Shown here: positions 11,204 to 17,609 of the stretch, one piece after another
Numbering within the stretch: the first letter of the stretch is position 1
Layout of the letters: the number at the start of each line of letters is the position of its first letter
IMG/VR virus record: IMGVR_UViG_3300032116_013561
DNA from: an uncultured virus (IMG/VR IMGVR_UViG_3300032116_013561)
Taxonomy: Duplodnaviria > Heunggongvirae > Uroviricota > Caudoviricetes
Direction: 5' to 3' (one strand)
Length of the DNA stretch: 20,000 nt
The notes under the pieces: generated by a model
The model's input: only the letters and a program-made list of their open reading frames with translations
Database searches by the model: none
What the model was told of the DNA's origin: nothing
Made by a program: the position numbers and the translations under genes

Positions 11204-14200
11204 ATGCACATGAAAAAAGCAATGTTAATGATGTTGTTATTTATGACAACAGCGTTTATGGGGTTTGCGCAAATCACAACCTCAAACATTTCTGGTGTGG
11301 TTAAAAACCAGAAGGGAGAAACTATCCCTGGCGCTTCGATTCATGCAACACACAACCCAACTGGTACGAATTATTATTCAGTTACCAATAAGAGTGGTGT
11401 GTTTGTGATTCCAGCGGTTAGGGTTGGTGGACCTTACACAATCCACGCTTCATTCGTAGGATTTAAGAAAGGTGAACTTAAAGAAATTAATACATCTTTA
11501 GGTTTAACCGAAAACGTAGAATTTGTATTGGTTGAAGAAGCAGTACAATTGAAAGAAGTAGTTGTATCAGCAAACAAGTATGGTATTTTCTCAAAAGAAA
11601 AAACTGGTGCTGCACAACAATTCGGACGTAGAGAATTAACTACAATTCCGATTACAGGAGCTAGAACTATTGATGGTATCACAAAGTACAATCCATTTGG
11701 TAGTGGTAACTCTTTCGGAGCACAAGACTCTCGTTTGAATAACTTCACAATTGATGGTTCTCAATTCAATAACAATTTCGGTTTAGGTTCTTCCGCACAA
11801 GCGGGTGGTAGAACTGGTGCTTCAGCCATTTCATTAGATGCGATTGACCAATTGCAGGTGAACGTTGCACCATTTGATATTCGCCAAAGTGGTTTCACAG
11901 GCGCAGGTATCAATGCGGTAACTCGTTCCGGTTCAAATGAAATTGAAGGTAGTGTTTATCAAACTCAAAGAAACAATTCATCAACTTATGTTGGTGATAA
12001 CGCAAGAGGAACTACCGTAACTGCGGCTAAGTTTGATGAGAAAGTACAAGGTTTTAGATTAGGTGCGCCAATTATCAAAAACAAATTATTCATTTTTGGT
12101 AACTACGAAAGTATAGAAAGAACTGAGCCGGGTACTAACTGGATTTCAGAAGGTTCACCATTGACGGGTACACAAATCAGTAGAGTAAAATATGCTGATA
12201 TGAAAGCTCTTTCTGATTTTATGAAAGAGAAATTCAATTATGTGACTGGCCCTTGGGAAGGTTATTCTAACACAAATGCTTCTAAGAAGTTTTTGCTTAG
12301 AACTGACTGGAACATTAACGATAAGAACAAATTAACTGCTCGTTATGTTCACCATAATTCTGAAGCGGAGATTAATATTTCAAACTCTCAATCAGCAGGA
12401 GCTGGTAATAGAACTACTCAATTTAATGCAATGTCATTTAAGAACAGTGGTTATATTATTCAAGATAATACTCGTTCAGCAGTATTGGAATTGAACTCAA
12501 ATTTATCTAGCACTTTATTTAACAACTTAATCGTTTCTTACGATAAGCAAATTGAAGATAGAGCTTATATGAGTCAAATGTTCCCAACTATTGATATTAG
12601 AGATGGTTCAGCAACTTATACTTCGGTAGGTTTTGACCCATTTACTCCATCAAATAAGTTGAACTATTGGACATTCAATGTAACAAACAACGTTACAAAA
12701 TATTTGGAGAAACACACTTTAGTTGGTGGTTTTAACTTCCAAAAATATCAATCAAACAACTTATTCTACCCAGCTTCTAATGGTGTTTACATCTTTAATA
12801 GCTTGGCAGATTTCTACACTGCAGCTAATCAATCATTGGCAAATGGTGGTGCACCTTCAACATTTGTACCGGCTCGTTTCCAATTCCGTTATTCAGCTTT
12901 GACTGGCGCAGTTGAACCAATGCAAGTGTTGAAAACAAATCGTTTAGATTTATATGTTCAAGACGAATATAATGCAACTCAAAACCTTAAATTAACTTTT
13001 GGTTTAAGAGCAAACATTATTTCAATTGAAAACACAGCATTAGAAAACAAAGCAATTTCAGCTATGACTTTTGCTGGTGGTGAGAAGTGGAATACAAGTG
13101 TACTTCCTAAAAATCAATTGTTATTTGAACCTCGTTTCGGATTTAACTATGATGTAAAAGGTGAGAAGAAAACACAAATCAGAGGTGGTAGTGGTATCTT
13201 TACTGGTAGACCTCCATATGTGTTCCTTTCTAATCAAATTGGAAACAATGGTGTGTTGACAGGATTTATTGATGTGAGTGGTGCAGCAGCGGCACAATAT
13301 GGTTTCACTGCAGACCCTAACAAATATTTCATTCCTTCAACTCCAACGTTACCATCAACATTTGATTTAGCATTAACTGACCCTAATTACAAAATGCCAC
13401 AAGTTTGGAAATCAAACTTAGCAATTGACCAAAAATTACCTTGGTTTGGATTAGTAGCTAGTGCTGAATTTTTATACAACAAAACAATTAACGCAGTTCA
13501 TTATTATAACGCTAACTTAGATGCACCTGTTGGTACATTAGGTGGTGTTGATGCAAGACCTCGTTACGCTGGTACTGATGCTGGTGTAAGAGTAAACGAT
13601 AACGTATCAATGGCTGCGGTATTAACTAATAGAAATGGGGCTTATAATCGTTCAGCAACATTCAAATTAGAAAAACCAATCTCTAAAGGTTTTTGGGGTT
13701 ATGTAGCTTATACGGCTGCAAAAGCTGAAGACTTTATGGATGCAGGTTCTATCGCAAGTGGTAGCTGGCAATCAGCATTATCTACAACTAACAACAATGA
13801 TTTAGGATTATCAATTTCTTCAAACTTAGTAAGAAATCGTATTGTAGGTTTATTGGGTTATCGTTTAGATTATGGTAAGAAATATGGTGGAGCAACTACA
13901 TTCACTTTAGGTTATGTAGGTTCTCAAAATAATCCATTCTCTTACATCGTAGCTGGTGACTTGAATGGTGATAGAGTATCTAACAATGAATTAGTATTCG
14001 TACCAAACAAAGGTTCTGATATTCGTTTCTCACCATTGACCGTAGGTAGTGGAGCAACAGCGGTAACTTATACTGAAGCTCAACAACAAGAGGCTTTTGA
14101 TAAGTTCATCGCTCAAGACCCTTACCTATCAACTCGTAGAGGTCAATACGCTGAAAGAAACGCATTGGATTTACCAATGTTACATAGATTTGATTTATCT

Positions 14201-14497
14201 ATCGCACAAGATGTATTTGTAAAGATTGGTGGAAAGAGAAATGCTTTCCAAATCAGAGCAGATATTCTTAACTTCGGAAATATGTTGAATAACAAATGGG
14301 GTGTTTCTCAAAGAGCAACTAACCCACAATTGTTGAACTTTGTAAGTAGAGATGCTAACAACGTTCCAACATATAGATTAGCAACTCAAAGAGATGCAAG
14401 CGGTACTTATTTGATTAAAGATACATATCAATTCAATTCTTCAGTATTTGATGTGTGGACAGCTCAGTTAGGTATTCGTTACACATTTGGCAAATAA
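11204..14497 (+). CDS. TonB-dependent outer-membrane transporter, Oar-like, with N-terminal carboxypeptidase-regulatory-like domain
   Basis: Sec signal ending GFA-Q (Gln +1, typical of Bacteroidota); ISGVVKN..GETIPGASI.A...GGPYTI; plug motifs NNFTIDG..NNNFGL and SLDAIDQLQVNVAPFDIRQSGFTGAGINAVTRSG; barrel motifs YVQDE and PRFGFNYD; C-terminal QLGIRYTF. Confidence 0.95.
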   Translation: MHMKKAMLMMLLFMTTAFMGFAQITTSNISGVVKNQKGETIPGASIHATHNPTGTNYYSVTNKSGVFVIPAVRVGGPYTIHASFVGFKKGELKEINTSLGLTENVEFVLVEEAVQLKEVVVSANKYGIFSKEKTGAAQQFGRRELTTIPITGARTIDGITKYNPFGSGNSFGAQDSRLNNFTIDGSQFNNNFGLGSSAQAGGRTGASAISLDAIDQLQVNVAPFDIRQSGFTGAGINAVTRSGSNEIEGSVYQTQRNNSSTYVGDNARGTTVTAAKFDEKVQGFRLGAPIIKNKLFIFGNYESIERTEPGTNWISEGSPLTGTQISRVKYADMKALSDFMKEKFNYVTGPWEGYSNTNASKKFLLRTDWNINDKNKLTARYVHHNSEAEINISNSQSAGAGNRTTQFNAMSFKNSGYIIQDNTRSAVLELNSNLSSTLFNNLIVSYDKQIEDRAYMSQMFPTIDIRDGSATYTSVGFDPFTPSNKLNYWTFNVTNNVTKYLEKHTLVGGFNFQKYQSNNLFYPASNGVYIFNSLADFYTAANQSLANGGAPSTFVPARFQFRYSALTGAVEPMQVLKTNRLDLYVQDEYNATQNLKLTFGLRANIISIENTALENKAISAMTFAGGEKWNTSVLPKNQLLFEPRFGFNYDVKGEKKTQIRGGSGIFTGRPPYVFLSNQIGNNGVLTGFIDVSGAAAAQYGFTADPNKYFIPSTPTLPSTFDLALTDPNYKMPQVWKSNLAIDQKLPWFGLVASAEFLYNKTINAVHYYNANLDAPVGTLGGVDARPRYAGTDAGVRVNDNVSMAAVLTNRNGAYNRSATFKLEKPISKGFWGYVAYTAAKAEDFMDAGSIASGSWQSALSTTNNNDLGLSISSNLVRNRIVGLLGYRLDYGKKYGGATTFTLGYVGSQNNPFSYIVAGDLNGDRVSNNELVFVPNKGSDIRFSPLTVGSGATAVTYTEAQQQEAFDKFIAQDPYLSTRRGQYAERNALDLPMLHRFDLSIAQDVFVKIGGKRNAFQIRADILNFGNMLNNKWGVSQRATNPQLLNFVSRDANNVPTYRLATQRDASGTYLIKDTYQFNSSVFDVWTAQLGIRYTFGK

Positions 14498-15722: not shown

Positions 15723-15872
15723 AACAATATAAATAATAGGGTATCATAATATTTTAGGGGTGATAAATTGTGAATAGAAATTAAGTTAATACAATTATTG
15801 AAGATAATTATAATAACAATCGGCGCCCGTTTCTTTATAACGTTATAATTGATTAACTTAAAATAAAAGAAA

Positions 15873-15986
15873 ATGCAAGCTATTGTAGATTTCGTATTCA
15901 ATCTTCACTTCTTAGTAGGTGCAGCAGTTGGATACTTCGTACTCCCTTACTTAGTAAATTTTGTAAAGGGATTCCTTAAAAAGTAA
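15873..15986 (+). CDS. Small single-TM peptide (37 aa)
   Basis: Not in the ORF track: MQAIVDFVFNLHFLVGAAVGYFVLPYLVNFVKGFLKK*. A-rich leader, TTC/TAC/GTA codon bias and its own terminator. Confidence 0.8.
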   Translation: MQAIVDFVFNLHFLVGAAVGYFVLPYLVNFVKGFLKK

Positions 15987-16015
15987 ATTAGAATTAAGCC
16001 CAAAGATTTACAAAC

Positions 16016-16049
16016 ACCCTCATAGAAATATGGGGGTTTTTTTATTTTT
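16016..16049 (+). terminator. Intrinsic terminator
   Basis: ACCCTCATA-GAAA-TATGGGGGT followed by a long T run. Confidence 0.9.
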
Positions 16050-16065
16050 CATAATATATATTATA

Positions 16066-16143
16066 GAAACCTTGTGGTTAATCCTTTAGTGTTCTTAGAA
16101 ACATTTGAGTTGAAATTAAAACCCTCAACGAATAAAGGCTTAA
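16066..16143 (+). other. Structured 5' leader of the Zn-ribbon gene
   Basis: TTAATCCTTTA (16078-16088) / TAAAGGCTTAA (16133-16143) stem encloses two hairpins (16089-16104; TTGAG/CTCAA 16105-16128). 16066-16079 is complementary to 16994-17008. Confidence 0.55.
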
Positions 16144-16168
16144 ATAAACAAACAAAAACAAGACAATT

Positions 16169-16981
16169 ATGTACACAAACATTACGCACACATGGTCTGC
16201 TATTAAAAGACCAGAAGCCTTCATTACGAAAGGTAAAAAAAGAATCAAACAATTTGATGGACAAGTATATCTCTCCGATGGAGATGAATACGAAATTGAA
16301 TTATTCAATCCTACACAAGACGTAGTATTAGCAAAAATTAAAATTGATGGGGATTATATTGCCGGCGGTGGTATAGTTCTTAGAAGGGGTGAAAGAGTGT
16401 TTTTGGAACGCTTTTTGGACTCGCCTAACAAGTTTAAGTTCTCAACCTATGTAGTTAATGGAAACAATACAGAAGTTCAGGATGCGATTGTAAATAACGG
16501 ATATGTAGAGATTGAGTTCTATTCAGAATACAAACCAACTTGGAATAGTGGATTCCTTACAACAGGAACAACCAATATGCACACCATTAATGGTAATCCG
16601 GTAAATTTTACCACTACATCATCGGGTGGAGCTACTTTTACATCATCTACATGTACCAATACATTCTATAATGTTAGTTTAACTTCTAATACAGTTGAAG
16701 GTCCAAACATTAGAGCATATTCGGATAAACAATTAAAATCCGTAAAAAGACATGTAGAAACAGGTACAACTGAAATGGGTAGTAATTCGGACCAAACATT
16801 CAAACATACAAACAAAACATTCAATTCGTTTTCGTTTTGGAATGTGGCTTGGCAAATTCTACCAACATCACAAAAACAATATACAGCAGAAGAAGTAGGT
16901 GTAAACTATTGTGGAAATTGTGGAGCTAAGAGAAAGAAATCATCTTTTAAGTTCTGCCCACACTGCGGAAATAAATTCTAA
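16169..16981 (+). CDS. Hypothetical protein: beta-rich N-domain, T/S/N linker, C-terminal zinc ribbon
   Basis: EYEIELFNP...LAKIKIDG...VFLERFLD...KFKF...NGYVEIEFY; ends CGNCG-x9-CPHCG. Confidence 0.9.
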   Translation: MYTNITHTWSAIKRPEAFITKGKKRIKQFDGQVYLSDGDEYEIELFNPTQDVVLAKIKIDGDYIAGGGIVLRRGERVFLERFLDSPNKFKFSTYVVNGNNTEVQDAIVNNGYVEIEFYSEYKPTWNSGFLTTGTTNMHTINGNPVNFTTTSSGGATFTSSTCTNTFYNVSLTSNTVEGPNIRAYSDKQLKSVKRHVETGTTEMGSNSDQTFKHTNKTFNSFSFWNVAWQILPTSQKQYTAEEVGVNYCGNCGAKRKKSSFKFCPHCGNKF

Positions 16982-17010
16982 TAAGTTATAATAAATCACA
17001 AGGTATTCAA

Positions 17011-17045
17011 AAGAAAAAGGGAGTGTAATAACTCCCTTTCTTTTT
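17011..17045. terminator. Bidirectional terminator between convergent genes
   Basis: AAAGGGAGT-gtaata-ACTCCCTTT with an A-rich left flank and a T-rich right flank. Confidence 0.88.
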
Positions 17046-17066
17046 ATAAGAAATTATATTAAAAGA

Positions 17067-17609
17067 TTAATTAGGTTCTACTAAAACAGTAGCATCAGGT
17101 TGATTTTCAATTTGAGCCTTATTAACTGCCAACGCTGTATTCAAATTTTTCACCATTTTATGAAAAACAAAAGGAGCGGTATTTGGTATTGGTACAGTAA
17201 CTTCTTTTACTTTTTCAAAACCTCTGGAAACAAACATATGTGCAGCTACACCAGTCACTTCGGAAAATAGTTCTACAACACCACGATCTTTGGCAAATTT
17301 TTCAATGAAATCTAACATTTCAAATGCAATACCATTACCTTTATGGTTTGGATGAACATAAACATATTTGATATTAGAATTAAATAATCCAACAAATCCT
17401 ACTATTTGCTCATTTTTAAGATAAACAAAAACGTTGTAATTTTCAATTACCCATTCCCAAGATTCAATTTTAGAACCACTCTCCAACCAAAAGTTTTTTT
17501 GTTTAGGATTTATATCCGCCCTTTGTGGAATATCAGTAATTGCAGCTTGATAAATATCTCTAAGAGATTCGGCATCTGATAAAGTTGCTACTCTAATATT
17601 ATTACTCAT
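17067..17609 (-). CDS. GNAT-family N-acetyltransferase
   Basis: IRVAT.SD...IVGFVGL...YVYVHPNHKGNGIAFEML (acetyl-CoA motif A)...FVSRGF; preceded by ATATTTATA (17625-17633). Confidence 0.9.
   Translation of the reverse strand: MSNNIRVATLSDAESLRDIYQAAITDIPQRADINPKQKNFWLESGSKIESWEWVIENYNVFVYLKNEQIVGFVGLFNSNIKYVYVHPNHKGNGIAFEMLDFIEKFAKDRGVVELFSEVTGVAAHMFVSRGFEKVKEVTVPIPNTAPFVFHKMVKNLNTALAVNKAQIENQPDATVLVEPN

Follow-up and report, generated by a model that had tools for sequence, protein, structure and literature searches.

Gene and complementary ends of its predicted transcript

A 20,000-nucleotide stretch of DNA from an uncultured virus of the Caudoviricetes (IMG/VR record IMGVR_UViG_3300032116_013561; this whole stretch is called the window) carries a gene for a protein of 270 amino acids. 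The predicted 5' end of its messenger RNA (mRNA) is complementary to a segment of the 3' untranslated region (UTR), and the long-range helix that the two segments can form is called P0. The features of the gene and its transcript ends are the following.

16051..16064, plus strand: putative AT-rich, promoter-like box, ATAATATATATTAT; relatives keep an ATATnTAT-like box
16066..16079, plus strand: 5' arm of P0, GAAACCTTGTGGTT, directly after the box
16169..16981, plus strand: open reading frame (ORF) of 270 amino acids; beta-sandwich, disordered insert rich in Thr, Ser and Asn, C-terminal zinc-ribbon-like CxxC...CxxC
16994..17008, plus strand: 3' arm of P0, AATCACAAGGTATTC, with A17005 bulged
17010..17045, plus strand: intrinsic-terminator-like hairpin with T tract, abutting the 3' arm; hairpin core 17016-17039

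The 3' arm lies between the stop codon (TAA 16979-16981, followed by a second TAA) and the terminator hairpin, and its partner is found 90-103 nucleotides (nt) upstream of the ATG. As computed with RNAduplex, the arms form 14 base pairs (bp) with one bulged A (17005) and one G-U pair (16077/16996), at -17.0 kcal/mol. An energy of -17.0 was reached in the window by 0.15% of shuffles when both regions were shuffled and by 1.45% when the 3' region alone was shuffled. When all 980 nt of the transcript are folded, P0 is present in the minimum free energy (MFE) structure and in the centroid structure alike (z -4.39). An initial annotation of this DNA had placed the two complementary arms at the same coordinates, with the same bulge and G-U pair, and had put an AT-rich stretch directly before the first arm and the second arm between the stop codon and the terminator; all of this was recovered.

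Conservation of the pairing in the core family

A protein search returned 999 relatives. Loci with flanks were taken from metagenome contigs (58) and from IMG/VR (13), and 8 GenBank phage stretches were added. A search of IMG/VR with profile A2 gave 507 relatives, 80 of which were used, and further IMG/VR loci were collected for two distant subfamilies (19 and 3). Scans of genome-collection contigs, made with the protein itself and with profile A1, found no relative. Start and stop codons were set by script, giving 141 genes with both ends, 7 of which had too little flank. Removal of identical UTR pairs reduced the set to 106, and with 7 distant GenBank loci treated apart, 99 cassettes were aligned from ATG-125 to stop+45 (alignment A3).

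The arms are found at matching places and are still able to pair in 98 of these 99 non-redundant cassettes; the 5' arm precedes the ATG by 80-105 nt, and the 3' arm comes 6-30 nt past the stop codon. Over all 99 cassettes, 90.6% of the cells at the 14 pairs of the window form a standard pair, compared with 37-47% when the partner was moved by 1-3 columns. Changes on both sides were seen at 7 of the 14 pairs (44 cells), and none of 500 shuffles reached any of the P0 pairing or covariation measures. The covariation is clearest at one pair that is G-C in 73 rows and U-A in 21, so that a 5' GTG stands with a 3' CAC in the former and a 5' GTT with a 3' AAC in the latter. Other variants of the helix are GAAACC with GGT[A]TTC, GAAACC with GGTTTC (without the bulge) and AGACC with GGTCT. 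Individual loci have arms of their own, as in L050 (GTGCT with AGCAC) and L057 (CCTCGTGTGG with CCACACGAGG). Longer perfect arms are those of L070 (15 bp), L140 (12 bp) and L057 (10 bp), lengths that were reached by 0, 0 and 5 per 1000 shuffles, respectively. Parsimony on a tree of the coding part counts 8 independent both-sided events in P0 and 14 one-sided events from Watson-Crick to G-U pairs. Conserved complementarity of the two UTRs with compensatory changes had been named beforehand as the test of the pairing, and the natural changes described here answer it in the affirmative. The sole exception among the 99 cassettes, L009 (264-1198), has another leader and lacks the 5' arm; its 3' arm and terminator are kept.

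Pairing in distant subfamilies

The distant subfamilies provide the strongest evidence for P0, because in them the arm sequences are replaced while the layout stays. In L072, which comes from a 462-kilobase (kb) phage and is identical in sequence to the IMG/VR locus L185, TCTCACTTTGTT pairs with AACAAAGTGAGA over 12 bp (1 of 1000 shuffles), and in L076, from a 642-kb phage, TTTATAGCTGTTCG pairs with CGAACAGCTATAAA over 14 bp (0 of 1000 shuffles). L076 belongs to a subfamily whose proteins end in a SHOCT-like domain, and in this subfamily (L076 and 14 distinct IMG/VR loci) arms of 10-14 bp are found at the same places and covary among themselves. They include AGCTGTTCGCT with AGTGAACAGCT, TAGCTGTTAT with ATAACAGCTA, ATAGCTGTTCAA with TTGAACAGCTAT and TAGATGTTCGC with GCGAAAATCTA; 13 of the 14 arm positions are paired in L175, and the helix of L077 is weaker (8 bp).

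A three-helix leader next to the 5' arm

The 5' arm runs directly into a second structure. The following elements of the leader, the helices being those of the RNAalifold consensus, lie between the 5' arm and the start codon.

16079..16142, plus strand: structured leader domain P1-P3
16079-16081 and 16084-16088 with 16133-16137 and 16140-16142, plus strand: P1
16089-16093 with 16100-16104, plus strand: P2
16109-16113 with 16125-16129, plus strand: P3
16143..16168, plus strand: A-rich leader with ACAAG (16158-16162), which can pair with the 5' arm when the 3' arm is absent

On alignment A3, 98.3% of the cells of the leader helices are paired versus 37-44% after sliding, both-sided changes occur at 13 of 18 pairs (295 cells), and parsimony on the tree counts 50 independent both-sided events. 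From this covariation the leader that adjoins the 5' arm is certainly an RNA structure. Its unpaired positions are highly conserved as well, with invariant columns, and it is probably a site to which a protein or some other factor binds. Nucleotide 16079 belongs to both P0 and P1, and P0 ends at 17008, with the extended terminator stem beginning at 17010, so that P0, P1 and the terminator stem could stack. The initial annotation, whose arm pairing holds, had overlooked this conserved three-helix domain beside the 5' arm.

A covariance model (R1) was built from 98 leaders. It gave one match in the window (16058-16171, 109.7 bits) and exactly one in each of 4 near-complete phage genomes (274-324 kb), always upstream of the single copy of the gene; weaker matches stand before the very distant homologs L078 (39.5 bits), L073 (28.5 bits) and L072 (22.1 bits). 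No Rfam 15 family reached its gathering score in 15800-17300, among 17 matches at E up to 10; the best of them scored 32.7 bits against a gathering score of 65. Like the cis-regulatory leaders and riboswitches of Rfam, P1-P3 is a covarying multi-helix element of the 5' UTR that is tied to one gene family; unlike them, it reaches no gathering score of that collection.

RNA or DNA level

Among the non-Watson-Crick cells of the inner helix 89 are G-U versus 25 A-C, and the A-C cells all fall in two columns near the helix end, where the helix of one clade stops. The G-U pair of the window is kept in 79 of 99 rows. Since the mismatches are mostly G-U, a helix of the sense-strand RNA is favoured over a repeat in the DNA. 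The same preference had been expressed in the initial annotation on the ground of the single G-U pair, and the covariation and the single orientation of the cassettes now point the same way.

An inverted repeat at the DNA level (sites of recombination or inversion, or the termini of a mobile cassette), or a pair of motifs conserved independently of each other and complementary by accident, would account for the surroundings of the cassette, which vary among close relatives (9 upstream and 24 downstream flank clusters), for the near invariance of both arm cores, and for an 8-mer match that is ordinary in the window alone. Such an explanation is nevertheless extremely improbable. The dominance of G-U does not fit it, the orientation relative to the upstream AT box is identical in all 98 cassettes with the leader, and a scan of 30 window ORFs detected neither a recombinase nor a transposase domain. 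In distant subfamilies quite different arms keep both complementarity and position, and the 5' arm runs on into a leader that is certainly RNA structure. No strand-changing joint was found in the contigs from four RNA-library runs, which were available as contigs only. What characterizes invertible or mobile elements, namely both orientations or empty sites and a recombinase nearby, was not found for this cassette.

Predicted boundaries of the transcript

On the upstream side the gene is preceded by one further feature.

16016..16037, plus strand: terminator-like hairpin of the upstream small ORF, insulating the cassette at its 5' side, with a 9-pair stem, 4 G-C pairs and a T tract

With terminator-like hairpins at 16016-16037 and 17016-17039 the gene looks monocistronic, transcribed as its own unit between terminators as the initial annotation had it. 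The hairpin at 17016-17039 also reads as a terminator on the minus strand, where it would serve the convergent GNAT gene (17067-17609). When positions were counted over 89 distinct upstream regions, an ATATnTAT-like box was placed 5-13 nt before the 5' arm, and upstream of this box the sequence differs completely between loci. Of 107 distinct 3' regions of relatives, 95 have a hairpin with a T tract after the 3' arm. The data fit a predicted transcript that starts at about 16064-16068 and ends near 17045. Because the covariation of P1 and P2 implies RNA from at least 16079 onward, a start within the leader is excluded. A canonical promoter inside the leader was considered, CATTTGAG, which resembles what we take to be the Bacteroidota -7 motif, TAnnTTTG; it was ruled out, since helices upstream of CATTTGAG covary and the RNA starts further upstream. 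Contigs from the four RNA libraries cover the gene and its UTRs in relatives, and one of them (16786-17047) extends from the coding sequence into the terminator. Circular or back-joined forms were not seen among these contigs.

The small ORF upstream (15873-15986) has 37 codons, encodes a hydrophobic peptide without a Pfam or PHROG match, and is followed by its own terminator. The same upstream context as in the window is found in 17 of 46 close relatives. The conserved unit begins with the AT box and closes with the terminator, and beyond these limits the sequence is not the same from one close relative to the next (L001-L047, L059-L065); k-mer clustering of the flanks gave 9 upstream clusters (46 loci) and 24 downstream clusters (51 loci). 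The cassette may either lie in a variable region of the genome or move as a unit.

Observations that weigh against the pairing

A number of observations count against an end-to-end helix. A perfect 8-mer is reached by 13.1% of shuffles in the window alone, and by 320 of 1000 with wider regions. Since the arm pair was picked after a scan of 20 kb and an 8-mer is common, the window alone proves little; it supports P0 beyond chance only weakly, and the case is carried by the relatives. The relatives have weak points of their own. The core CCTTGT/ACAAGG is almost invariant in the core family, the covariation there amounts to few independent events (8), mostly towards the helix ends, and parsimony also counts 35 paired-to-unpaired events in P0, mostly in columns near both ends of the helix. 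The outer three columns score poorly because the bulge shifts the register in a fixed alignment. The loci come from related phages, and their rows are not independent. Duplex energy alone falls below the 5th percentile of a locus's own shuffles in only 55 of 103 loci, by a test that discriminates poorly because wide regions and G+C-rich parts of the terminator give low-energy duplexes by chance; a Smith-Waterman scan for arms often caught terminator-to-terminator matches.

Further away, P0 is not convincing in L073, L074, L075 (Lak-B4), L078, L079, L186 and L187. L169 is without leader and 5' arm, with the 3' arm and terminator kept, the arms of the L174 lineage have decayed, and in L179 the terminator follows immediately after the stop codon and the helix is absent or unclear. 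As for the transcript, the RNA-library contigs give no start, end, strand or level, and one of them (15866-16105) crosses the 5' arm from the upstream gene; because it spans both, it could be read-through RNA or DNA in the library. With these points taken together with the conservation described above, we consider it very likely that P0 is a real RNA feature in this phage group. L009 and L169, in which the leader and 5' arm are lost and the 3' arm is kept, offer natural comparisons for the role of the pairing.

The encoded protein

At the C-terminus the Pfam model Zn_Ribbon_1 (PF13240) matches below threshold (18.3 bits versus a cut-off of 25, E 0.002), and C248, C251, C263 and C266 are invariant in 32 diverse relatives. 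The AlphaFold2 model made with the 32 relatives (mean predicted local distance difference test score 73.8) has a beta-sandwich formed by residues ~14-120 and 196-234, a disordered insert (127-180) and then the zinc-ribbon-like end. For the 270-amino-acid protein no family was found in PHROGs, NCBIfam gave only a meaningless weak match, and a Foldseek search of the model against the PDB returned nothing at E <= 0.001. Alignment to solved structures with VIA-align gave generic immunoglobulin-like sandwiches (Z <= 7.0), and the ESM Atlas only clusters of "hypothetical protein" from viruses. Foldseek against BFVD matched uncharacterised proteins of large eukaryotic DNA viruses at E 1e-9 to 1e-4 (Yasminevirus, Marseillevirus, Pithovirus, iridoviruses, nudiviruses, a granulovirus and nimaviruses) and a SHOCT-domain protein of a marine phage at 8.7e-22. 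Judged by these modelled folds, the protein may belong to a widespread viral beta-sandwich family.

In the SHOCT subfamily (L076:1804-2865, L077:1771-2790 and L166-L184) the zinc ribbon is replaced by a SHOCT-like helical end (...ELLSKI); the N-terminal domain, an ETGRxEKG block and the pairing of the UTRs are kept. The homolog of Prevotella phage Lak-B4 (L075, ~1435-2325) has an in-frame TAG in its reading frame, which fits the alternative coding described for Lak phages in the part of the literature consulted (PMC8346664).

Phage context

Relatives of the protein were found by tblastn in 22 GenBank phage records, all of 460-735 kb and including Prevotella Lak phages, and the near-complete IMG/VR records with the gene measure 274-324 kb. 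Among virus records the nearest, G001, is 41.7 kb long and has a completeness rating of 12%. The phage from which the window comes is a very large one, and its phage origin had escaped the initial annotation. Domains in its ORFs include UvdE, Hsp20, NT5C, GIY-YIG, PhoH, a helicase and DUF1599, and other ORFs encode CpeT, AAA_28, GNAT and SnoaL proteins and a SusC-like outer-membrane barrel. The last of these is an ORF of 1097 amino acids (11204-14497) with CarboxypepD_reg and an outer-membrane beta-barrel (SusC/TonB-dependent-receptor-like, E 1.5e-52), an unusual cargo for a phage; the CpeT-like and AAA_28 genes come next after it. Several gene starts, at 2980, 7850, 10598 and 14581, are preceded by TAnnTTTG-like boxes (TATATTTG, TATCTTTG, TGTATTTG) at a distance of a few to ~20 nt, and most genes of the window are without a Shine-Dalgarno sequence. 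This combination is what we take to be the Bacteroidota pattern of promoters and initiation, and the host is probably a member of the Bacteroidota.

Possible roles of P0

We propose that the gene (16169-16981) would be transcribed alone, from the AT-rich box that stands right before 16066 as far as the terminator (17010-17045), and that the first 14 nt of the RNA (16066-16079) would pair with 16994-17008, directly before the terminator hairpin. P0 would then clamp the 5' end to the 3' UTR, with the coding part as a loop of ~900 nt, and would itself be flanked by the leader helices P1-P3 on one side and by the terminator stem on the other. Both ends of the transcript would be buried in helices, and this burial would impede RNases whose action depends on a free 5' end, a single-stranded site in the leader or a free 3' tail. 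The closure of the mRNA into a ~900-nt loop had been put forward in the initial annotation, and it gains from the conserved, covarying arms and from the presence of P0 in both folds of the 980-nt transcript; that a real sense-strand RNA helix closes this mRNA as described is likely. Stabilisation as the main role of P0 is a more tentative proposal, which we would hold with some doubt, as it is an analogy and not a result.

Another role for the same helix would be a switch of translation, in which the nascent 5' arm (CCUUGU) pairs with the ribosome-binding region and closes the leader until the 14-bp match with the 3' arm frees the start, so that only complete transcripts would be translated. 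CUUGU does pair with ACAAG (16158-16162) when the 5' UTR of the window is folded alone, and the full-length fold leaves the start region open. Pairing of the arm with the region before the ATG is in the MFE structure of 81 of 98 core leaders, versus 28.5% when the 20 nt before the ATG were shuffled, 4-8 bp of such pairing are available at -8 to -16 from the ATG in every one of the 98 leaders, and L057 has changed both partners (arm CTCGT with leader ACGAG). Yet this alternative helix is short (4-8 bp), its median p against mononucleotide-shuffled leaders is 0.08, and ribosome-binding sequences of the AAGG type are complementary to CCUU anyway; moreover, the SHOCT subfamily keeps P0 and has the alternative pairing in only 3 of 14 leaders, and the scarcity of Shine-Dalgarno sequences in the window speaks against it as well. 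Long-range pairing with a ribosome-binding site is effective in B. subtilis, according to the part of the report consulted (PMC12697547). We regard the switch as quite unlikely; it could act together with the clamp. P0 could also be a processing stem for RNase III, of the kind that flanks ribosomal RNA (rRNA) or that is formed by the icaR 5'/3' duplex. The pairing does flank the whole coding part, as rRNA processing stems do, and a longer, quasi-continuous helix is possible as P0 adjoins P1 (shared nucleotide 16079) and the terminator stem. With its 14 bp, bulge and G-U pair P0 nevertheless stays below the roughly two helical turns that we take to be typical of RNase III sites. Pairing of the icaR 5' and 3' ends makes an RNase III substrate, as the accessible part of that study describes it (PMC3868564). 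The RNA-library contigs studied here extend uncut across the leader and also along the 3' UTR as far as the terminator. A role in processing appears improbable to us.

The leader and P0 may instead form a platform for the encoded zinc-ribbon protein or for a host factor, with autoregulation as the purpose and the pairing serving to shape the site. Leader and gene travel together, with one copy of each in 4 of 4 near-complete genomes, R1 also finds the leader before very distant homologs (L078, L073, L072), the unpaired leader positions are highly conserved, and the protein has basic stretches besides its zinc-ribbon-like end. On the other hand, the predicted fold is a generic beta-sandwich with no informative solved relative, and the subfamilies with a SHOCT-like end instead of the zinc ribbon keep P0; we give this explanation a low probability. 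Release of the 3' UTR (3' arm and terminator) as a small RNA, which would then bind in trans to the 5' ends of other copies of this mRNA, is very improbable. A 3' arm directly before a strong terminator is what we take to be the usual anatomy of small RNAs derived from 3' UTRs, and pairing in cis and in trans look alike in sequence data, but no separate promoter or processing site was seen, proximity favours pairing within one molecule, and the RNA-library contig 16786-17047 joins the coding sequence to the terminator. Returning to the clamp, a bolder form of it is speculative and, in our judgment, on the unlikely side: clamp and leader together would be an RNA device dedicated to a gene that is a hallmark of huge Bacteroidota phages, either a licence for translation that senses completion of the transcript, given when the 3' arm displaces the 5' arm from the start region, or a means to bring stop and start codons together for re-use of ribosomes, with the leader as a specific ligand- or protein-binding domain. 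If true, it would be the first case of a closed-loop mRNA architecture with phylogenetic support in a virus of bacteria.

Comparison with known systems

Complementary ends close a long RNA into a loop in rRNA processing stems and in the panhandle or cyclisation sequences of RNA viruses. Those molecules are rRNA precursors or RNA genomes, whereas the RNA considered here is the mRNA of a DNA phage and its stem has 14 bp.

Pairing of the 5' UTR with the 3' UTR in bacterial mRNAs is known from very few cases, each in one species. In S. aureus the 3' UTR of icaR pairs with the Shine-Dalgarno region of the 5' UTR, and the duplex is a substrate of RNase III, as the part of the report consulted describes it (Ruiz de los Mozos et al. 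2013, PMC3868564). On that description the icaR 3' UTR masks the ribosome-binding site and represses translation; in contrast, the partner of the phage 3' arm precedes the start codon by ~90 nt, and the pairing would, if it had any such effect, free the start region, which is unpaired in the full-length fold, so that a pairing of the icaR type (3' UTR with ribosome-binding site) was not found here.

The closer relative is hbs of B. subtilis, in which a 14-nt segment of the 5' UTR forms a helix (-19 kcal/mol) with a stretch that lies immediately before the terminator, and mutation with compensatory changes showed that the pairing limits cleavage by RNase Y and slows decay in vivo (Braun, Durand and Condon 2017, PMC5737220, in the part of the text consulted). 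In that text's account, hbs and the phage mRNA have in common a helix of ~14 bp (-19 kcal/mol in hbs, -17.0 in the phage), a short mRNA with a structured 5' UTR, monocistronic in hbs and predicted to be so in the phage, and complementary segments in the 5' UTR and in the 3' UTR just before the terminator, which in the phages recur in 98 of 99 cassettes. The compensatory changes that were introduced in hbs have their natural counterpart here in the 7 of 14 pairs changed on both sides (44 cells, 8 events) and in the replaced arms. The differences, again on that account, are that the 5' partner of hbs lies inside the leader, downstream of two hairpins, whereas the phage arm stands at the predicted extreme 5' end, upstream of the leader; that the arm sequences are unrelated; and that the phage pairing is supported by natural covariation over ~120 loci and the hbs pairing by experiment. 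The statement of the initial annotation that no system with such a layout had been described is not supported, as the UTR pairings of hbs (PMC5737220) and icaR (PMC3868564) were known, at least as far as the parts of these two reports consulted go. In a full-text literature search, which did not extend to supplements, no description of this leader or of this UTR pairing in huge phages was found.

End-to-end pairing appears to be selected, because across a wide radiation of huge phages the arms differ in sequence and yet remain complementary and in place. The work also supplies a strongly covarying leader outside Rfam 15 that is tied to a single-copy gene of huge phages (270-735 kb), and it could help to explain how phages of hosts with little Shine-Dalgarno usage control the stability and translation of their mRNAs. 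Compared with the known systems, the phage pairing would thus be a 5'/3'-UTR pairing of the hbs type, and what seems new is its occurrence in huge phages, its position at the predicted extreme 5' end, its wide evolutionary support and its association with a leader unmatched in Rfam.

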